Source: Candidatus Adlerbacteria bacterium (GTDB lineage Bacteria; Patescibacteriota; Minisyncoccia; Phycocordibacterales; SBAW01). Taken from it: 42,328 bases of DNA. Position 1 is the first letter of the stretch; the number at the start of each line of letters is the position of its first letter. Of the stretch, positions 1 through 16,582 are shown in pieces. The notes below the pieces were generated by a model that saw only the letters and a list, made by a program, of their open reading frames with translations, was not told where the DNA came from and made no database searches. The stretch is taken from contig JAYVXU010000028.1 of NCBI GenBank assembly GCA_043784925.1, positions 1 to 42,328 on the forward strand. Direction: 5' to 3'. The translations under genes and the position numbers were made by a program.

Positions 1-96
1 GGGCTGTGGAATTTACATATTCAAATGAGTTGAGGAGTAGTGGAATATGCAGGAGAGACAGGGTTGTGTGCGGTTTTTTAATGTGGGGCAGGTCTA
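1..96. mobile_element. Probable terminal segment of an IS3-family-like insertion sequence interrupting the mod gene
   Basis: Mod-like sequence begins abruptly at about 97 (DYVDENDAYRHSKW) and the upstream DPPY motif is absent. The reverse complement of 81-96 is TAGACCTGCCCCACAT, which resembles IS3-family (IS2/IS407-like) terminal inverted repeats recalled from memory. Confidence 0.4.
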
Positions 97-1625
97 ATGA
101 TTATGTGGATGAGAATGATGCCTATCGACACAGTAAATGGATATCGATGATGAATAATCGATTGAAACTATGCAAGGATCTCTTGAAAGAAGATGGGGTA
201 TTGATAGTAACAATTGATAAATACGAAAATGCGACATTGTTAATGTTGCTATCAGAGATATTTTACGGATACGACATTACGTCTGTTGTCATAGAACACA
301 ATCCAAAAGGATTACCGAGTAAGAACTTTTCTTATTCTCATGAGTATGCACATTTTGTGACGCCGTCTGGTCAGTCAGTGGTTGGTAAAAATCCAGAAGG
401 AAAAGAGGATACTCGAAATCTGAGGAGAGCCGGGAAAGCTTCATACAGAGTGGACAGACCGACAATGTTTTATCCGTTATATGTAAAAGATGGGAAGGTC
501 ACTAGAGTTGGGGATATTCCAAAGGACTCATATCATCCAAAATCACGAAACATTCCTTGTAAAAATGGAGAAATCGAGATCTGGCCAATCGACGACGTTG
601 GTGATGAGAGGAGATGGCATTTCGGTCTGGACTCTGTCGGTGATCACATGGAGAGGATTGAGGTCAAGGAGAAAAAGGGAGATATACAACTTTATGTAAC
701 CGCAGTACCTGCGCGCTATAAAACGGTTTGGACAGGAGGTGATCTAGATGCGGGTAAATACGGGACTACTCTCGTAAAAGATATTACAGGAGTAGAGTTT
801 CCTTTTCCGAAATCATTGCTGGCCACGTTGAGGTGTTTGGAGTCGGTAGTCTACACTCGAACCAACGCTTTGGTGCTCGATTTTTTTGCCGGGTCTGGAA
901 CCACGGGCCATGCCGTTCTTGAATTAAACAAACGAGATAAAGGTAATCGAAAGTTTATTCTTTGCACAAATAATGAAAATAATATCTGCGAAGACGTTAC
1001 TTATAAGCGCCTCCGTGGAGTAATTGATGGGTATAAATTTAAAGGCAGAAACAAAACACCACTTTATTCAAAAGAACTAATTCTTTCAGAGCTGATTAGC
1101 CACTCTGAAGAAATAGCAGCAGAAATAGAGTCAATTACGACCGCAAATAAAAAGAAATTCGATAAGATCGAAACAGAATTAGAAGACGGTGTCGTGAGTA
1201 TTTCAGGAATAAAAAATGTAGATGGGAAAATGGAAGGTCTCGGTGGTAATCTTCGTTACTACAAAACTGACCTTGTAGATATTGAAAAGCTCCATCGCAC
1301 GCCCGATCACGCGAAGGTAAAATTAACTCACCAGGCCGGCGAGATGATTGCTCTGCGCGAGGATACTTTGAATGAAGTTGAAAAGAGTGACTGGTGGCAG
1401 ATATTTGAGGGACGCGGAAAAACTACCGCTATCTATTTCAAGGAAGATAAAGAGAAGCTCCAAGAGCTCATTGAGCTATTAGAGAAAAAGAAACAGCCTG
1501 CAACCGTGTATATCTTCAGTTGGGGGAAAAACGAATACAAGAGTGAATACAGCTCGGCAAATATCAGAGTCGAGGATATTCCTGAACCTATTCTTGAGGT
1601 GTACAAAGAAATTAATCGCCTATAA
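97..1625 (+). pseudogene. mod: Type III R-M modification subunit (adenine DNA methyltransferase), 5'-truncated within this window
   Basis: RHSKWISMM, FPFPKS, the SAM-binding motif LDFFAGSGTTGHAV and RKFILCTNNE are present, and the gene lies directly upstream of res. Catalytic motif IV (DPPY) is missing from the visible part. Confidence 0.8.
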
Positions 1626-1630
1626 AATTT

Positions 1631-3943
1631 ATGTTTCCTCTCAAACCATTTCAAGAAATCGCGGTAGCAAAGCTCAAGGATCAGTTTCTTCGGCTTTGGA
1701 AGTCCTCTGGCATACAGCTACCTCTCGTATTCAAGTCGCCAACAGGATCAGGGAAGACGGTCATGCTCGCACAGTTTCTACGCGACTTGGTGGGAGATCC
1801 CCGCTTTGTAGGCAACGATGTCGCATTTTTATGGATGTCTAAGGGACCTACTTTGGTAGAACAAAGTAAGAATAAGCTTTTTGAATACTATGGAGGAGCA
1901 TCGGAGCTCGAGCTTCTAGATATAGACGACCTTAATCGTAAGGTACTGACTCGTAACAGTGTCTTTTTCATAAACTGGGAAAAGCTTAAGGGCCAGTCAA
2001 AAGACGTTTTAAAGATCCGCCGCGAGAATGAGCAAGACATCTCGTTTGATGGAATGATTGAGGCTACACATGAGGAGAAGAGAAAAATTGTCGTAATCAT
2101 CGACGAAGAGCACCTCGGTGCTGATACGGAAAAAGCCCTTGAATTGATTGATGGTCTAATTAAACCAAAGATAATCCTCAGGCTTTCTGCTACGCCTAAA
2201 TATGAGCCGACAGTAAGTGATCTTGAAGATGGTACAGCGGGTTTTGTTCGGGTAAAGAGAGAGGATGTTGTGCGAGAAGGGCTAATTAAGGAAAAAATTA
2301 TCTTTCAGACGGAAGAAGATCTCAATCAAAAACAATTTAGAGGGATGGATCAAAACGAAATTCTGCTTGAGCTCGCCTTTCAAAAGCGAGAGGAACTGCT
2401 TTCGTATTACGGAAAGCTAAAAGTTGATATCAATCCTCTCGTATTGATCCAGCTTCCAAACGACGATAAGGCCAGCTCAGAGACTAGCAATACGAACATG
2501 CAGGAAATTGTAATCAATTTCTTAAAGAAAAAAGGTGTGTCTGAAAATAATATTGCCGTTTGGCTTTCAGAGGACAAGGTTAACTTGAAAGATGTTGAGA
2601 GAAACAACTCATCGGTGTCGTTTCTTCTATTTAAGCAAGCTGTAGCGACCGGCTGGGATTGTCCTCGTGCTGGCGTGCTTGTGATGTTTCGAGAAATCAA
2701 AAACCCAACTTTCGCCATTCAAACAGTTGGACGAATTCTTCGTATGCCGCTTGGTGTTCATTTTGGTAAGCCAGAGCTCAATCTTGGATACCTTTACACC
2801 AACTATAGGAGGAATGAGGTGATTAGTGAATACGATAAGAGCAAGTCTGAAAACAAACCAGCAATATTTGGAAGTTATCGTAAGAAAGACGTCAAGCCAA
2901 TTCAAATCGAGTCTGTTTTTATGAGTCGTTCGGACTATAACGATCTCGGAGATACATTCCAGTCTACTTTTAAAAAGGCTGCGAATGCGTATTTTGGTAT
3001 TAAAGAAAATGATGTCGAAGCGAAGAAAAAACTCGCAGCTAAAAATCTGGAACTAAAACCAAACATAACCAATGGCATCATTGTTGGCGTTGAGATCGAT
3101 GACTATGATAATTTTACCAAAGAGCTATTGGCTGAGGGAGGGAGTCATGAGCAAGAGATGTCCCAGCACGACATTGAAAGACTTTATAACCTTGTTTGTT
3201 TCAATATCATCGGTAAGCAAACTGACGAGAATAAGAAATTTGCCCCTGAGCGCTCATGGGGAAAGCTCAAGACAGCCCTTAATGTTTGGCTATTGCCGGT
3301 CCTTGGAGACGATCGCACTCAAGCGTACAAGGTTATTCTGCATGACTTACTCAAGGAAGGCGGCGTGTTGCGGCCTCTTATTGGAGAGGTTTTAGAGAAA
3401 TATCGACCCATTCGTGATCAAGAAGTAAATAAGAAATCGGTCCGTGCGAAGCGCATAGAGACTATTGAAATTCCACGAGCTTCTCTTTTCTTCACTGATT
3501 TGTACGAAGAAATGAGGGCTAAGAAGTCAGCAATGGAGCCATTTTATATCTCCAAAGAGGTGGTAGATAACGAGAAATCATTTATCAAATTCTTGGATGA
3601 AAACAAGAGTATTGAGTGGTGGTACAAAAACGGTGACTCAGGAAGCGAATACTTCTCAATCTCTTATTACAATTCTGACGAAAATAAAGAGAAGCTTTTT
3701 TATCCTGACTGGATAATTAAGACTAAAAACAAGATCTGGATTATTGATACCAAGGCTGGCTTTACTGCTGAAGCTAACGATACGAAGTATAAGGCCGAAG
3801 CCTTACAGGAGTGGCTCAAAGGCACGAGAGGCTTTAGTGGCGGGATTGCCGTAAAAGATGCTAATGGATGGAAGCTAAACGACAACAAAGAATACGCTTA
3901 CACTCCGGCAATGAAAGGATGGAAGAATATAGATTTTTCATAA
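1631..3943 (+). CDS. res: Type III R-M restriction subunit (SF2 helicase plus PD-(D/E)xK nuclease)
   Basis: SPTGSGKT (Walker A), DEEH, SAT, GWDCPRA and QTVGRILR helicase motifs, plus a C-terminal FYPDW...IDTK nuclease motif. Confidence 0.92.
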   Translation: MFPLKPFQEIAVAKLKDQFLRLWKSSGIQLPLVFKSPTGSGKTVMLAQFLRDLVGDPRFVGNDVAFLWMSKGPTLVEQSKNKLFEYYGGASELELLDIDDLNRKVLTRNSVFFINWEKLKGQSKDVLKIRRENEQDISFDGMIEATHEEKRKIVVIIDEEHLGADTEKALELIDGLIKPKIILRLSATPKYEPTVSDLEDGTAGFVRVKREDVVREGLIKEKIIFQTEEDLNQKQFRGMDQNEILLELAFQKREELLSYYGKLKVDINPLVLIQLPNDDKASSETSNTNMQEIVINFLKKKGVSENNIAVWLSEDKVNLKDVERNNSSVSFLLFKQAVATGWDCPRAGVLVMFREIKNPTFAIQTVGRILRMPLGVHFGKPELNLGYLYTNYRRNEVISEYDKSKSENKPAIFGSYRKKDVKPIQIESVFMSRSDYNDLGDTFQSTFKKAANAYFGIKENDVEAKKKLAAKNLELKPNITNGIIVGVEIDDYDNFTKELLAEGGSHEQEMSQHDIERLYNLVCFNIIGKQTDENKKFAPERSWGKLKTALNVWLLPVLGDDRTQAYKVILHDLLKEGGVLRPLIGEVLEKYRPIRDQEVNKKSVRAKRIETIEIPRASLFFTDLYEEMRAKKSAMEPFYISKEVVDNEKSFIKFLDENKSIEWWYKNGDSGSEYFSISYYNSDENKEKLFYPDWIIKTKNKIWIIDTKAGFTAEANDTKYKAEALQEWLKGTRGFSGGIAVKDANGWKLNDNKEYAYTPAMKGWKNIDFS

Positions 3944-3954
3944 TACGTTAAATC

Positions 3955-6066
3955 ATGGAAACAATTATTGGCAAAAATCTTCTTCACTTACTTAAAAACA
4001 GATTTATTTTGTTTGGGCTTTTTTGTGTTGGGTTTATTGTATCTTTTTATATTCACTCGGGATCATTTTTGCCCAGTACAGACACTAAAGACCTATGGTT
4101 TTACTCGGGTCTTTTTATGGTTCTATTTTCAATTTTATTTATAGAACCTTACTACACGTCCCCAAAGAATGTCATTACAAACGCAATCCCACTCCTCCTC
4201 GTTTTCTTAGCGATCAGGTCATCATTCAATAATCCTATTTTCTGGTGGGGAGCCGTAGCTGTATTATTGTTCCTCCTGCTCACATCGATCATTGCTCTTG
4301 CTTGTGAAGATAAAGATAATAGCCCTGACCATTGGAAAAATAAAACAGCAACAGCTCTAAAAAATATTGTCGTCGTGATTGGACAAGGGAAGATACTCTA
4401 CTCCTCAGTCTTTATTTATTTTTTGCTGACGTACTACTCCATTCAGGATTTCTATACTTTAATTTTATTTGTTTTTTGGTTTCTTATTTTGTGTATCAAT
4501 CCGAAGAATATACACGGTAGTTTTGCAACACTTTCCAAAAAAGAGAACAGCGACCAGATTGGTGAGATATTCGGTGTTCAATCAAAAAAGATTTTTTTAG
4601 TAAAGTTGTTCGAGGATAGAAAAAGTATCAAAAAGTTTGACGTCGTTCGATTTAGTTACTCAATGCAAGATACAAAAGATTTCGTGATTACGGGTATTGT
4701 ATTTGATACCTACTTACTTAACCAAGAGAAGTGGGCAAAGGTCCTCCAGTTAGGGGATCCAAAGAAAGAAAGTGGAAAGCTTGAGAGAAACATCGTCTAC
4801 AAGCTATCTGGTAGCGCAGAAGTCGATGCTGCGAATAAAGAACTAAAAATCAATGACCTTGTTGGTGTTGTTATCGATGGCTCGACCATAGGAAAGATAA
4901 AGTTTGAATATTCTAAAAAAGATGATGATTTACAGGAAGGGGATCTACTTGAGCTGAGGGTCGGCGAAACACGACTATTTTATCAAGTGATTGGAGGAAG
5001 CACAGAAAAAGAAAAACTGGAGGCTCGAAACGAGACTGGCTTTATAGAAGGAGAAGCTATTCAGCTCGGTGAATGGAAAAATGAAGATCTATCTTTTCAA
5101 AAATTCGGTTGGGTTCCGTCCATCAACACACCTATTTTTAAAGCAGATACATCAAAAATAAAAAAGAAGACTTTTACATACCCAAACTACGCATTAGGTA
5201 TTATTCCTGGGACTACATTACCCTCAGTTGTAAATTTGGATGACGCAATTAGTCACCACATGGCACTTTTGGGTATCACAGGATCAGGTAAATCGTTTCT
5301 AGCTCGGGAAATAATTAATCAAATCAAGACAGATACGAAAGTAGTCTGTGTTGATTTTAATAAAGAATTTGTTACTACTCTTACTCCGCCACCGCCTGAT
5401 ATTATTGCGCCTGCGACGGCAACTGCGATTTCTGAGAAAATAGATTGGATAAATACTGAGCTTGAGAAGTTTGGCAATCTTCAGAACAAAGCCTTAATAG
5501 CTCAAAAACAGGGAGAAATCAAAGAACTCATGAAAGGTGAGATAACCCTTTTTCTTGATGATCAAACATGCAACATAAAAGTGTTTGAATTGCCAGATGT
5601 AAGCAACACGACTGGAATCCTTGATTACACGAAGTATTTCTTTAAGGTTTTATTTGAAGTTGCTAAAACGAGACAGGCCACCGGTAACGGTACAAAAATG
5701 TGTGTCGTTCTTGAAGAGGCACACACGGTAATTCCAGAGTGGAACTTTTCTGGTAGCAGTGATAAAACGAGTCAGAGTTTGGTGAATAGTATTGGTCAAA
5801 TTACCCTACAGGGCAGAAAATATGGAGTTGGATTTCTTGTAATAGCGCAAAGAACAGCAAATGTTTCTAAAACAGTCCTTACTCAATGCAATACCGTTGT
5901 TTGTTTTCAAGCTTTTGATGAAACAAGCTTTTCTTTTTTGGGTAATTATGTAGGCAAAGATATAGTCCAAGCCCTGCCAAACTTAAAGCAGTATCACGCG
6001 GTTGTCGCTGGTAAGGGAGCAAAGTCGAACATGCCAATGATCATTGATTTAAGACGCGGCAAATAG
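3955..6066 (+). CDS. Membrane-anchored HerA/FtsK-like ATPase (DUF87-like) with about 6 N-terminal TM helices
   Basis: The first ~185 aa are hydrophobic helices, followed by beta-rich HAS-barrel-like segments. Motifs: HMALLGITGSGKS (Walker A), VVLEEAH (Walker B), QGRKYG and AQR. Confidence 0.85.
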   Translation: METIIGKNLLHLLKNRFILFGLFCVGFIVSFYIHSGSFLPSTDTKDLWFYSGLFMVLFSILFIEPYYTSPKNVITNAIPLLLVFLAIRSSFNNPIFWWGAVAVLLFLLLTSIIALACEDKDNSPDHWKNKTATALKNIVVVIGQGKILYSSVFIYFLLTYYSIQDFYTLILFVFWFLILCINPKNIHGSFATLSKKENSDQIGEIFGVQSKKIFLVKLFEDRKSIKKFDVVRFSYSMQDTKDFVITGIVFDTYLLNQEKWAKVLQLGDPKKESGKLERNIVYKLSGSAEVDAANKELKINDLVGVVIDGSTIGKIKFEYSKKDDDLQEGDLLELRVGETRLFYQVIGGSTEKEKLEARNETGFIEGEAIQLGEWKNEDLSFQKFGWVPSINTPIFKADTSKIKKKTFTYPNYALGIIPGTTLPSVVNLDDAISHHMALLGITGSGKSFLAREIINQIKTDTKVVCVDFNKEFVTTLTPPPPDIIAPATATAISEKIDWINTELEKFGNLQNKALIAQKQGEIKELMKGEITLFLDDQTCNIKVFELPDVSNTTGILDYTKYFFKVLFEVAKTRQATGNGTKMCVVLEEAHTVIPEWNFSGSSDKTSQSLVNSIGQITLQGRKYGVGFLVIAQRTANVSKTVLTQCNTVVCFQAFDETSFSFLGNYVGKDIVQALPNLKQYHAVVAGKGAKSNMPMIIDLRRGK

Positions 6067-6076
6067 TTTCAATACC

Positions 6077-7582
6077 ATGACCCGTCTTATTTCTAAAACA
6101 ATCTTTCAAGAGTTTCTCTATTGTCCAAAAAACATTTGGCTTAAAATCCATAAGCCTGAATTAGCTGCGAAATTCACTCCCTCCGAATTCGAACTACATC
6201 TAATGGAACAAGGGAACGAGGTTGAGTCTCTCGCCCATGGTTTAGATCTTTTTCAAGGAGGTGTCGAGGTGAATTCAAGAGGAGACGAGGCTGTAGCTGA
6301 GACCTCTCGGCTCATGACAGCTCTTACGCCAGTCATCTTCCAAGCAACATTTATCAAAGATGGTTTTGTCGTTCGTAACGATGCTCTCAAGTATGACTCT
6401 GTAAATAAATGCTGGGATCTTTATGAAATTAAGGCCACCAACTCGATACACGAAGGAAAGAAGCGTGATCACATTGTCGACATAACTTTTCAAGCTTCTG
6501 TCTTGAGGCGTGCCAGTGTAATCCACGGCAAATCATCGCACGTAAGACTCAATAAAGAGTATGTTCGGCATGGCGAACTTAATCTAGAGACTCTTTTTGA
6601 GGTTGAGGATGTAACCGAAAAAGTTTCTGAAAGAATGACAGAAGTGGAAGGAAAGATGGAAGTTGCTCTTGAGTATCTCAATAAAGAACAAGAGCCGGTT
6701 GGAGGCTGCGAGTGTGTGTATGGTGTACGAAGAAACCATTGCACGATGTTCTCGTACTCGAATCCACAAATTCCAGAGTATTCCGTGCACGATTTATCTC
6801 GGATACATAAAACAAAACTCCTGTTATTTATGGAGCAAGGAGTACATGGCATTGGTGACATAGAAGATCCTGACGCATACAAGCTTTCTGATAAGCAGAA
6901 AAATCAAGTGCTTGCACATAAGCTGCAGAAACCAATCATAGACATTGAGAAGATTTCAGAAGAGTTGTCGTCACTTAAGTTTCCGCTTTATTTCTTTGAC
7001 TACGAGACATTTCCGCCTGCTGTGCCCCTGTTTGATGGATACGGTCCATACCAACACATCCCATTTCAATTCTCTTTACACATTCTACGAGAGCCAAAGG
7101 GCGAGCTCGAGCATGTTGAATACCTGCAAACTAGTTTTAAAGATCCTTCGTCGGATGTCGCAGAACTTTTGAGACAGCACGTTGTAGGAGGTACTGTCAT
7201 TGCTTGGTATAAGTCATTTGAGACAAGGATCAACAGAGAAATAGGTATACGGTTACCTCAGCATGTCGCTTTCTTTGAGCAGCTAAATAATTCAATGTAT
7301 GACCTGATGGACATTTTCTTTGATCAGCATTACATCCATAACGATTTTAAGGGGAGCGCCTCAATTAAAAAAGTTCTTCCTGTGATAGCACCAGAGCTTC
7401 ACTATAAAGATCTTGAAATACAGGGCGGTGCAGAAGCATCTAAATCCTGGTGGCACATGATTGCACCAAGTACTTCAACTGAAGAACGAGATGGCGTAGC
7501 GAAGAATTTAAAGGAATACTGTGGTCGTGATACATACGCTATGTATGTTATTTGGAAGCATTTGCAGGACATGTGCGAGTAG
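6077..7582 (+). CDS. DUF2779-family protein: RecB/Cas4-like nuclease domain plus RNase H/DnaQ-like exonuclease domain
   Basis: YCPKNIWL, RNDAL, LYEIKAT, DITFQ and a Cys cluster CEC..HC. C-terminal FFDYET, DLMDIF, SIKKVLP and YCGRDT. Confidence 0.8.
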   Translation: MTRLISKTIFQEFLYCPKNIWLKIHKPELAAKFTPSEFELHLMEQGNEVESLAHGLDLFQGGVEVNSRGDEAVAETSRLMTALTPVIFQATFIKDGFVVRNDALKYDSVNKCWDLYEIKATNSIHEGKKRDHIVDITFQASVLRRASVIHGKSSHVRLNKEYVRHGELNLETLFEVEDVTEKVSERMTEVEGKMEVALEYLNKEQEPVGGCECVYGVRRNHCTMFSYSNPQIPEYSVHDLSRIHKTKLLLFMEQGVHGIGDIEDPDAYKLSDKQKNQVLAHKLQKPIIDIEKISEELSSLKFPLYFFDYETFPPAVPLFDGYGPYQHIPFQFSLHILREPKGELEHVEYLQTSFKDPSSDVAELLRQHVVGGTVIAWYKSFETRINREIGIRLPQHVAFFEQLNNSMYDLMDIFFDQHYIHNDFKGSASIKKVLPVIAPELHYKDLEIQGGAEASKSWWHMIAPSTSTEERDGVAKNLKEYCGRDTYAMYVIWKHLQDMCE

Positions 7583-8868: not shown

Positions 8869-9041
8869 TGGGTGATCGAAGTCAGGCAAACTGCTTTGCC
8901 TGCGGTGGGACGAAAAAGGCGCAGGCATATTTTTTCAGTAGAAAAAATGCCGAGCCAGGGTCGTGAAAATTTGCACTCGATAGTGTGATGAGGCATCATC
9001 TGCAGTAAAATTATTCCTGACCGAGTCCCATCGATCACCCA
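8869..9041 (+). repeat. Structured palindromic element bounded by inverted and direct copies of a tRNA(His)-like 3' end
   Basis: Right arm CGAGTCCCATCGATCACCCA (9022-9041) reads as T-loop, T-stem, acceptor strand and C73. Left arm TGGGTGATCGA...TGGGAC is its reverse complement. Internal hairpins include ATTTTTTC-AGTA-GAAAAAAT. Confidence 0.65.
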
Positions 9042-9086
9042 AGAAACATTTGTATAAATAAGAGTCGTAGTTTAAGGAGCTTAATG

Positions 9087-9120: not shown

Positions 9121-9369
9121 ATGTCAAATGAGTATGAATATAAAATCGAATACGAAGTAGACAAAGAAACCGGACAGGTTACTGCAACCATCCCAGAACT
9201 CAACCATATCTCATCCTTTGGAGATACTTTTGCTGAAGCAGAAGCTAATGTTCGTGAGGCAGCTCTAGGCTATTTCGAAGTGCTTATGAGCGAAGATAAA
9301 GAAATCCCTAAGCCAGCTTTTCATACAGAGGGGACATATCTTAAGTTCTTTGTTCCAAAAACTGCCTAA
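9121..9369 (+). CDS. hicB: HicB-family antitoxin (short, no obvious DNA-binding domain)
   Basis: ATIPEL...SFGDTFAEAEANVREA...Y...L.....EIPKP, adjacent to hicA. Confidence 0.88.
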   Translation: MSNEYEYKIEYEVDKETGQVTATIPELNHISSFGDTFAEAEANVREAALGYFEVLMSEDKEIPKPAFHTEGTYLKFFVPKTA

Positions 9370-9379
9370 ATTTTATTGT

Positions 9380-9607
9380 ATGGGCAAACTTAGCCGACTG
9401 TCTTCTCGAAAGGTCATCCAAAAACTCAAGAAGGCTGGATTTACTGAAACTCATCAAAGAGGTAGCCATCTTTATCTAAAGAATAAAGATAATACAAAGA
9501 TAGTGACAGTGCCCGTTCATGGGTCAAAAGATATCCCTATCGGAACTCTATATAACATCGTCGTTAGACAAGCAGGTTTATCAGTAGAAGAGTTTAGTAA
9601 CCTATAG
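9380..9607 (+). CDS. hicA: HicA-family mRNA interferase toxin
   Basis: LKKAGF...QRGSH...VTVPVHG..DIPIGTLYNI. Confidence 0.92.
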   Translation: MGKLSRLSSRKVIQKLKKAGFTETHQRGSHLYLKNKDNTKIVTVPVHGSKDIPIGTLYNIVVRQAGLSVEEFSNL

Positions 9608-15572: not shown

Positions 15573-15995
15573 ATGGCTAAAAAAATAACGAAAAAAATCA
15601 AAATAATCGCTCCCGCTGGCAAAGCTACGCCGGCGCCTCCTTTGGGCACTACGCTTGGGCCCGCGGGTATCAACATCGGTGAGTTTGTTAAACGTTTTAA
15701 TGAAGCGACTTTGCCGATGATTGGGAACCTTATTCCTTGTATCATCACCATTTATGACGACCGTTCATATGACTTCGTACTCAAGACGCCTCCGGCTTCT
15801 GGGCTCATTATGAAGATGATCAATAAGGAAAAAGGGTCGGGCAAACCAAACACTGCAAAGATAGGTTCAATCACTAAAGCACAACTTCGCGAAATTGCTG
15901 AAAAGAAAATGGTAGACCTTAACTCAAAAGATGTTGAGGGTGCCATGCTCACTATCGCCGGCACTGCAAGGTCTATGGGCGTGGATGTGAAATAA
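15573..15995 (+). CDS. rplK: 50S ribosomal protein L11
   Basis: AGKATPAPPLG, KTPPAS and IAGTARSMG. Confidence 0.98.
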   Translation: MAKKITKKIKIIAPAGKATPAPPLGTTLGPAGINIGEFVKRFNEATLPMIGNLIPCIITIYDDRSYDFVLKTPPASGLIMKMINKEKGSGKPNTAKIGSITKAQLREIAEKKMVDLNSKDVEGAMLTIAGTARSMGVDVK

Positions 15996-16080
15996 TCACA
16001 TCCACGAGCCGGAGGCTGTCGAGCCGAGGCGGGCCCGCGCAACTTTTCAGCAGAAAAGTATGTGGGTGGATGTTAAATAA
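15996..16080 (+). repeat. AGCA-tetraloop palindromic element with arms copied from the rplK 3' end
   Basis: rplK ends GTGGATGTGAAATAA. It is followed by an inverted copy TCACATCCAC, a core containing ACTTTTC-AGCA-GAAAAGT, and a direct copy GTGGATGTTAAATAA (16066-16080). Confidence 0.75.
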
Positions 16081-16127
16081 GGGAAAAATATCATGTGTTA
16101 TAAAACCCCCCAGTTGGGCGATTTTTG

Positions 16128-16156
16128 TTGACAATAAAGTAAATGGGATTTACTGT
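16128..16156 (+). promoter_or_regulatory. Sigma70 promoter
   Basis: TTGACA-17 nt-TACTGT, with SD-like GAAGGAGAGG before the ATG at 16184. Confidence 0.6.
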
Positions 16157-16183
16157 GCTTTAAGAGACGCTGAAGGAGAGGTT

Positions 16184-16582
16184 ATGTTAGATTTTCCCAC
16201 GAAGTTTTTACTAGTACCCTGTGGCAACATGACTCCAGTGGAGCCGTTGGGCTATGAAGTACGTTGGCATGTACCTCAAGAGTCATTTCGTTGGGTATGC
16301 TCGGAAGCCAGTTCGTATCCTCTGATGTTACGGTCGAGGAAATTGATATGGAATGTCTGTGTCTGCGATTATCTTTTAGAAAACCTTGAGCTAGTAGACC
16401 CTTATGCCGGTCAGTGGATACCGTTTATTGGCACCCTTTTTCATGATTCAAAGAGCAACTTGTTTACCACTACTTTACATAAAGAGGATGGTAAGTGGAC
16501 TCGAATGTTGCAGTGGGTTGGATATGGAAACACTATCGCAGATAACCCAGTGGGTAAACTACTACTGAATCAACAACACTAA
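16184..16582 (+). CDS. Hypothetical protein resembling CPR DGR-target (CLec-like) family
   Basis: Pattern DYLLENLELV...WIPFIGTLFHDSKSNLF...L...DGKW....W......NP. Has its own promoter and SD. Confidence 0.55.
   Translation: MLDFPTKFLLVPCGNMTPVEPLGYEVRWHVPQESFRWVCSEASSYPLMLRSRKLIWNVCVCDYLLENLELVDPYAGQWIPFIGTLFHDSKSNLFTTTLHKEDGKWTRMLQWVGYGNTIADNPVGKLLLNQQH

Follow-up and report, generated by a model that had tools for sequence, protein, structure and literature searches.

The window analysed in this work (the whole stretch of 42,328 nt, contig JAYVXU010000028.1 of a Candidatus Adlerbacteria genome) carries rplK, encoding ribosomal protein L11, in the gene order secE, nusG, rplK. Homologues of rplK are present in 58 of the 61 genomes of the genus. 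The gene rplA is absent after rplK, and no Ribosomal_L1 (PF00687) match was detected anywhere in this 89.8%-complete genome; loss of L1 is known in some Parcubacteria. The ORF downstream of the insert described below (16184–16579) matches no Pfam family. An initial annotation had described the end of rplK and the sequence behind it as X, the reverse complement of X, a core and X again, X being the final 15 nt of the gene. Direct reading of 15981–16080 confirmed this layout (Table 1). The 5' arm X' directly abuts the rplK stop codon, and the interval from X' to the distal copy X2 is about 60 nt long, GC-rich, and folds as two hairpins, H1 and H2. A search for X with up to two mismatches gave 2 matches against 0.06 expected, and none of 100 shuffles reached 2. 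The 26-mer at 16039–16064 recurs at 41834–41859 with C to A at position 5 and G to T at position 20, which are the two sides of one base pair and thus a compensatory change, as had been claimed. For the 14-mer TTTTCAGYAGAAAA the window has three occurrences (8932, 16044, and 41839, all on the plus strand) against 0.12 expected, and the 1.06-Mb genome has five; a search of 41 related genomes gave 47, compared with 4 for the reversed control pattern. The flanks of these matches in relatives have the two hairpins in common and differ in their outermost stems. The small units contain no ORF and no integrase. The program ARAGORN found no tRNA or tmRNA in the window, and a tRNA or tmRNA reading of the element was therefore rejected.

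Table 1. Positions of the rplK locus features and of the other element copies in the window.
Feature	Position	Strand	Description
rplK	15573–15995	+	ORF for ribosomal protein L11; gene in front of the element
X	15981–15995	+	GTGGATGTGAAATAA; rplK 3' end including stop codon; upstream copy of the direct repeat
X' (5' arm)	15996–16005	+	Exact reverse complement of the first 10 nt of X
H1	16008–16030	+	Predicted fold: 3-bp stem, internal loop GGA/GA, 4-bp stem, tetraloop
H2	16033–16067	+	Predicted fold: long hairpin with bulged A, conserved G.U and tip TTTTC-AGCA-GAAAA (16044–16057)
X2 (3' arm + tail)	16066–16080	+	14/15 copy of X
Probable tandem unit	15981–16064	.	About twofold flank depth plus junction contig at single-copy depth
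Second copy	8869–9044	+	Model match, arms and predicted fold
Outer 5' arm	8869–8879		Part of second copy
P0	8883–8902		Part of second copy; CUGC loop
Inner arm	8907–8911		Part of second copy
Core	8912–9027		Part of second copy; long tips
3' arm	9022–9044		Part of second copy; copies tRNA-His
Third copy	41786–41881	+	Model match; has its own long stem and lies between a terminator and the efp gene end (convergent)
Core	41803–41865		Part of third copy

In the predicted structure, the 62-nt core forms H1 and H2 on the sense strand, and the arms close them into a modelled three-way junction. At rplK, X' has two possible partners: pairing with X would form a hairpin whose loop contains the stop codon, and pairing with X2 would form the closing stem P1. 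The predicted energy of the rplK copy is -46.9 kcal/mol for the X:X' hairpin with H1 and H2, vs. -34.8 kcal/mol for the closed junction. The 3' strand of H2 is 2 nt shorter (a deletion) in the rplK copy than in the copies of relatives. No T run follows H2 or P1, and the terminator of the relatives lies further downstream, so the rplK copy does not have the form of an intrinsic terminator. Since the insert is placed between the stop codon and the terminator it is transcribed with rplK, and for this reason it may additionally act as RNA. Small ribozymes, SRP-like RNAs, the K-turn, and the L1-binding site were compared with the element by eye, and none fitted.

The initial annotation had proposed searching with a covariance model, and such a model was built from 8 copies. 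Its first search of the genome gave 15 matches, and 17 are now counted in the 1.06-Mb genome at E <= 0.1, the E-values of this model being rough. In a covariation alignment of 56 matches from the window and loci, which was fitted to the model, 96.1% of the cells are standard pairs vs. 73.3% in shuffles, and none of 500 shuffles reached the observed value. All 23 of the 23 modelled pairs have changed on both sides, and covariation extends to all 7 pairs of H1 (helices 1 and 2) and all 16 pairs of H2 (helix 3); the covariation score is 0.477, compared with 0.142 for shuffled alignments and at most 0.067 when the partners were slid. G.T/T.G cells number 83 out of 1113 and A.C/C.A cells only 15, an excess which indicates that selection acts on the fold of the sense strand alone, be it RNA or single-stranded DNA. 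The alignment also has a bulged A and a conserved G.U pair. The tips of H1 and H2 tolerate long insertions, and the junction is the conserved part. The arms differ from copy to copy, which bears out the earlier statement that the core is conserved and the arms are locus-specific. Among the 58 best-scoring matches, a sample near the consensus, core identity is 0.819 within a genome and 0.815 between genomes. Because the cores are equally alike within and between genomes, there is no sign of recent within-genome bursts in this sample.

The family is abundant in the order and apparently undescribed. At E <= 1e-3, matches were obtained in 125 of 151 genomes of the same order (110 of 131 genera), with 1 to 33 matches per genome and more than 1000 in total; for 151 genomes of the same phylum the figure is 7 at E <= 1e-5. 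A strict pattern of H1 plus junction was present in at least 120 contigs of a species-level genome collection, and the named titles among the 80 matches listed are all Patescibacteria/CPR (for example Paceibacterota, Parcubacteria, Kaiserbacteria, and Nomurabacteria). Two strict patterns gave no match to viral contigs, exact patterns being an insensitive probe. Rfam 15 at gathering score returned no match in the window and two loci, and at E <= 10 only three chance-level matches were seen, far under the cut-offs. A full-text literature search found no description of such an element. Within the reach of these searches the earlier view of the element as undescribed can be upheld.

Most copies in this genome lie behind tRNA genes. 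ARAGORN called 37 tRNA genes; 11 of the 17 copies are located within about 250 nt 3' of a called tRNA gene on the same strand, and a twelfth stands behind an intron-containing tRNA that ARAGORN missed. For the order, the 60 best matches were fetched, 58 of them at full length. In 45 of these 58 loci a same-strand tRNA gene ends 1–300 nt upstream (mostly 50–75 nt), and at least 14 amino-acid specificities are represented. The sequence after the core repeats at least 13 nt (26 nt at most) of the cognate tRNA in 26 of the 45 tRNA-linked loci, compared with 23 of 1900 non-cognate control pairs that reach 13 nt or more. The repeat nearly always starts at T-loop C56 and ends at the tRNA 3' end plus 1–6 nt of genomic trailer, not at CCA, and the upstream tRNA is intact, as called by ARAGORN. 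The core-proximal 5' arm is the reverse complement of the start of the repeat and ends in TCGAA; since the arm mirrors the repeat in this way, the apparently conserved GAAA of the junction is the T-loop complement. Pairing of the 5' arm is limited in many copies to the first 7–13 nt of the 3' arm, and the further 5' pieces are variable. Many copies also carry P0, a terminator-like hairpin with a CUGC loop, before the 5' arm, and 6 of the 9 such CUGC-loop hairpins in this genome sit at that position. A kissing interaction between the P0 CUGC loop and the AGCA tip of H2 was considered and rejected, as the P0-bearing copies mostly lack the AGCA tip. Stacked or tandem units were observed, and layered partial tRNA copies exist, for example behind tRNA-Leu on contig C21.

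The sense of the element is always that of the gene in front. The neighbouring genes share nothing beyond being tRNAs, and the genes downstream are unrelated or convergent. An element placed downstream of tRNA genes and rplK, with no coherent downstream gene set, does not behave as a riboswitch or cis-regulatory leader. Several other sequences were noted in the same surroundings. Genome-wide there are 188 occurrences of the 7-mer GCGAAGC; it is seen repeatedly where several of the element copies have their outer borders, and also in tRNA trailers, for example those of tRNA-Met (contig C45), tRNA-Gly (C23), and tRNA-Val and tRNA-Leu (both C46). A second type of core behind tRNA genes, starting with GAAAAGGTTGAGTATATTTT, follows the same arm logic and is unmatched by the covariance model; it was seen on contig C19 after tRNA-Trp and at C46:5322–5480. 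At C45:11585–12495 a tRNA gene has a group-I-like intron in its anticodon loop and directly follows an ORF beginning like a LAGLIDADG endonuclease, and element copies flank this region.

The 3' arm of the second copy in the window matches tRNA-His at 23/23 positions, beginning in the T-loop and running 4 nt over the gene end. The initial annotation had reported a related hairpin at 8929–8948 with arms copied from a tRNA end. The arms of this copy do match a tRNA, but the hairpin itself is the tip of H1 and not the homologue of 16044–16057, and the tRNA gene is on another contig (C46), the window having no tRNA gene. The outer 5' arm matches the reverse complement of this copy's 3' arm exactly, and it differs from the 5' strand of tRNA-His itself, which has a G.U pair. 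On C46 a 549-aa large serine recombinase comes immediately after tRNA-His, then a second resolvase-domain ORF, and the contig ends in the N-terminal part of a DNA methylase. At its start the window cuts into a methylase gene, behind which come genes for a ResIII helicase, a HerA-like ATPase, and a DUF2779 protein. Together, window positions 3–7579 and C46:6717–12603 hold a defence-type set (N6/N4 DNA methylase, ResIII helicase, HerA-like ATPase, DUF2779 protein). We infer a 14.7-kb defence island running from tRNA-His to the 8869–9044 copy and bounded by the 23-nt repeat, the join of C46 to the window being drawn from the two halves of the methylase gene alone. Against this, repeats of 23 nt are not known to be left by large serine recombinases. 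The reading frame of the serine recombinase runs antisense through the tRNA-His gene, and a HicB/HicA toxin-antitoxin pair (9121–9604) immediately follows the element copy. The closest relative has a syntenic but decayed counterpart of 8869–9044, with different neighbours on either side and no tRNA nearby.

The third copy of the window has a near twin between proS and mreB on contig C37, which differs at 3 of 56 core positions. These two copies have long stems of their own and share their outer arms, and neither shows a long flank duplication or any arm-flank identity. The expectation that arms match the flanking gene end thus holds at rplK and at 26 of the 45 tRNA-linked copies, and fails for this pair. 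Likewise, fixed terminal repeats, which the initial annotation had named as evidence against its reading, are generally not seen, apart from the outer arms that the two copies have in common.

Next, orthologous sites were compared among relatives, another of the approaches that had been proposed. For rplK, 30 loci of the genus were collected, 29 of which were usable: the site is filled in 8 and empty in 21, the empty form being the stop codon followed by a plain terminator. Beyond the present genome, the arrangement X-X'-core-X2 was found in 7 further genomes of the genus and in 1 genome of another family, whose rplK site is likewise filled. In the filled genomes the terminator comes after X2, and in one of them the sequence after X2 resembles the post-stop sequence of an empty genome. 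The filled genomes are not mutual nearest relatives; for two of them the nearest rplK (88–89% identity) belongs to an empty site. Two tRNA sites are polymorphic as well: tRNA-Arg(tct) is filled in 3 of 6 genomes and tRNA-Gly(tcc) in 2 of 6. The native terminator of tRNA-Gly(tcc) stands after the last repeat, as the empty site shows, so the trailer and P0 belong to the insert. The site of the third copy is empty in one relative (G064). The proS-mreB copy is absent in all 4 comparable relatives, in which the proS stop and mreB start overlap (ATGA), and it is a recent gain of the small unit alone. Insertion into a pre-existing local hairpin was rejected for this copy, since its empty sites are overlapping genes with no hairpin. 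Since relatives differ at orthologous sites, some having the element and others a precisely empty site, the element is an insertion, and with no ORF of its own it is a gene-less one, in agreement with the earlier description.

The rplK copies of 7 filled genomes (the eighth locus is complex and was excluded) allowed us to count the pairing of X' with its two partners. With upstream X there are 55 Watson-Crick pairs, 1 wobble, and 0 mismatches among 56, vs. 48, 5, and 3 among 56 with X2, and the complementarity of X' to X is kept across 5 synonymous variants of the X codons. An X' that is perfect on X and poorer on X2 is expected if X and X' arrive together. The result fits such a joint arrival, and it also fits a functional hairpin around the stop codon. 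As a native rplK end, X2 gives a weak trend only, with 13 vs. 18 differences to the nearest empty relative.

The assembly probably hides part of the rplK insert. Contigs of four DNA runs, two of which are a possible source sample, were compared with 15600–16500. In the two probable-source runs, 15981–16064 has a depth of 44.7 and 36.4, whereas its flanks have 25.1/21.3 and 23.2/19.4, respectively; in both, a 63-nt contig (depth 22.2 and 17.5) links 16064 via TGG back to 15981. Given the doubled depth and the junction contig, the rplK locus most likely holds two head-to-tail units which the assembly collapsed. A circle present at one copy per cell is a less simple reading of the junction contig. 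The two further runs contain a related strain with the element, followed by 159 different letters after it.

Our reading of the rplK feature, which we hold to have about an even chance of being right, is that it is one unit, probably of a two-unit tandem, of an approximately 85-nt gene-less insertion lying before the terminator. Starting from the observed anatomy, strand-specific covarying fold, flanking duplication, filled and empty sites, stacking, and wide distribution, we propose that the family is a non-autonomous integrative element, with paired arms that mimic the target and a core that serves as the handle for a recombinase acting in trans; the case for and against this proposal seems to us about balanced. 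Before integration the element would exist free, probably single-stranded or as a small circle, with its arms base-paired into a duplex that reproduces the target and with the core as a cap. Both the strand specificity of the fold and the complementarity of the 5' arm suggest that this form would present its site as a hairpin, as integron attC and the CTX phage do. A recombinase encoded elsewhere would then recognise the folded site, and strand exchange would take place with the segment of identical sequence in the gene; the gene would be completed by the copy that the element brings in, and its native copy would end up beyond the insert. We have less confidence in the enzymatic steps than in the proposal overall, and the free form, the recombinase, and the role of the core as handle are inferences. 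Candidate enzymes in this genome are two PF00589 proteins (C39 and C38) and the serine recombinases beside tRNA-His on C46. Recombination at gene ends is the simplest account because it covers at once the order of the parts (gene end, trailer and P0 in copies that have them, complementary arm, core, and a second gene end), the intact genes, the displaced native ends, the stacking, and the precise empty sites. Against it, no excised form, circle, or recombinase activity was seen, the junction contig fitting a tandem at least equally well; and since at least 14 tRNA kinds as well as protein genes are used as targets, target recognition would have to be unusually broad. Also unfavourable to it are the lack of an integrase in the small copies, the two copies with no long flank duplication, the absence of a burst pattern, and the strict patterns that matched no viral contig.

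A more specific version would make the three-way junction the handle of a structure-guided integration, in which a recombinase reading this handle inserts the element, its arms being a folded double-stranded copy of the target, wherever the chromosome matches them, or would make the fold an RNA that guides the enzyme. We regard this version as doubtful. If it were true, changing the arms would retarget the element, which would then be a natural programmable hairpin att site.

A serious rival, to which we nevertheless give a rather low probability and which is compatible with the integrative reading, takes the element as a structured RNA module that serves the host in 3' UTRs and tRNA trailers, as a block to 3' exonucleases, a processing signal, or a switch at rplK, with the gene-end duplication as a by-product of copying of the module. 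In the switch version, a ribosome at the stop codon would melt the X:X' hairpin and X' would then close the junction with X2. The strong conservation of sequence and structure across 125 of 151 genomes fits a host RNA function equally well, and further points in its favour are the constant sense relative to the gene in front, the transcription of the insert with rplK, the way X' tracks synonymous changes of X, the two alternative folds predicted, and the absence of a within-genome burst pattern. It leaves unexplained, however, the fixed T-loop start of the 3'-arm copy and the precisely empty sites in close relatives. Moreover, a terminator-like P0 borne by the insert itself precedes the core in tRNA-linked copies, and the nearby genes have only tRNA identity in common.

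The initial annotation had favoured arms made anew at each insertion by target-primed or template-switching synthesis, with an RT or HUH/Y1 enzyme acting in trans, an account that we now consider quite improbable. It has the exact match of the 5' arm to the reverse complement of the 3' arm, and not to the tRNA 5' strand, in the tRNA-His-type copy; X' is perfect relative to the local rplK end in 7 of 7 genomes; the duplication is variable in length (13–26 nt), as in target-primed insertion; and this genome has seven Y1_Tnp genes and one RT. Y1_Tnp and the element do not co-occur, however: Y1_Tnp genes are present in 89 of the 151 genomes of the order; of the 125 genomes that have the element 77 are among these, and of the 26 that lack it at least 12. 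Four element-rich genomes (G029, G079, G088, and G103) have no Y1_Tnp, and G101, a genome with 11 Y1 genes, lacks the element. In the genome studied here, the hairpins that flank the seven Y1 genes are of other kinds. These seven ORFs are IS200/RAYT-like and about 220–250 aa long (C14:551–1225, C60:26405–27148, and others on C11, C38, C21, C45, and C44); several have their own hairpin on both sides, and one contains an in-frame TAG. An RT in trans fares no better. The only RVT_1 gene of the genome (C29:1478–2656) is near no element copy, and the sequence after this ORF is by its appearance presumably a group II intron domain V, so that the RT seems to belong to a group II intron. On the same grounds a retron ncRNA was rejected. 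De novo copying of both arms is also at odds with the many 5' arms that pair over only 7–13 nt and with the two copies that share outer arms, and an insert that brings its own trailer and P0 is better explained as a pre-formed unit.

It is very improbable that the copies are inert, functionless scars left behind by larger elements (phages or islands) that had integrated in tRNA genes. Such integration typically leaves a tRNA 3'-end repeat starting in the T-loop, layered partial tRNA copies as on C21 are present, and one copy lies at the edge of a probable island; yet scars should decay, whereas 96% of the cells are paired with compensatory changes, over 1000 matches share one 62-nt core, the copies are complete units of compact size, and the proS-mreB copy was gained as a small unit on its own.

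If our account holds, more than 1000 copies of an undescribed structured element are present in 151 sampled genomes of one Patescibacteria order (Parcubacteria/Paceibacterota-type MAGs), and in this genome the element stands behind about one third of the 37 tRNA genes called. It would then account for many "duplicated tRNA tail" scars, add a well-supported RNA or single-stranded DNA fold that is absent from Rfam, and serve as a warning that such loci are collapsed in assemblies. It also raises the question of how a unit without genes finds and completes the 3' ends of essential genes in genomes where genes of mobile elements are very few.

Several known systems resemble the element in part. 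Like MITEs and REP/BIME sequences with their RAYT, it is small, non-coding, multi-copy, hairpin-forming, and intergenic. Its anatomy is the reverse of that of a MITE, with a conserved centre and target-derived arms: the copies have no common terminal inverted repeats, the arms varying and the core being constant, and no fixed short target duplication, as the duplication is 15 nt at rplK, 13–26 nt at tRNAs, and not clear in two copies. It differs from REP/BIME-RAYT systems in that there is no Y1 association across the 151 genomes, the Y1 genes being flanked by other hairpins. The bridge RNA of IS110 and the omega RNA of the IS605 family are guide-bearing RNAs of mobile elements. They share with the element a conserved scaffold with segments that match the local target; here, no cognate protein gene is nearby and both target-matching segments pair with each other.

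Integron attC and CTX phage attP are single-strand recombination sites that act in folded form, and the CTX stem imitates the chromosomal target. A one-strand hairpin, wobble pairs, a bulged base, and a structure kept more than the arm sequence are common to these sites and the element, whose G.T to A.C imbalance, obtained on an alignment fitted to the model, is that of a site selected on one strand. In the element, on the other hand, the tip is conserved and the stem is variable, the targets are gene ends, and any dependence on IntI-type or Xer enzymes would be hypothetical. Williams reportedly classified integrative elements and genomic islands in 2002 by the part of the tRNA gene that serves as the tyrosine-integrase att site, with a T-loop class among them. 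Elements of that class and ours are alike in a repeat that starts in the T-loop and takes in the 3' end with a few bases more, in the intact tRNA, in tandem stacking, and in filled and empty sites. Our small units carry no integrase, and only the 8869–9044 copy may close a serine-recombinase island. The element is distinguished from the T-loop class by its length of 85–200 nt, its conserved folded core, a 5' arm complementary to the repeat, and a choice of targets that comprises many tRNA species and the ends of some protein genes.
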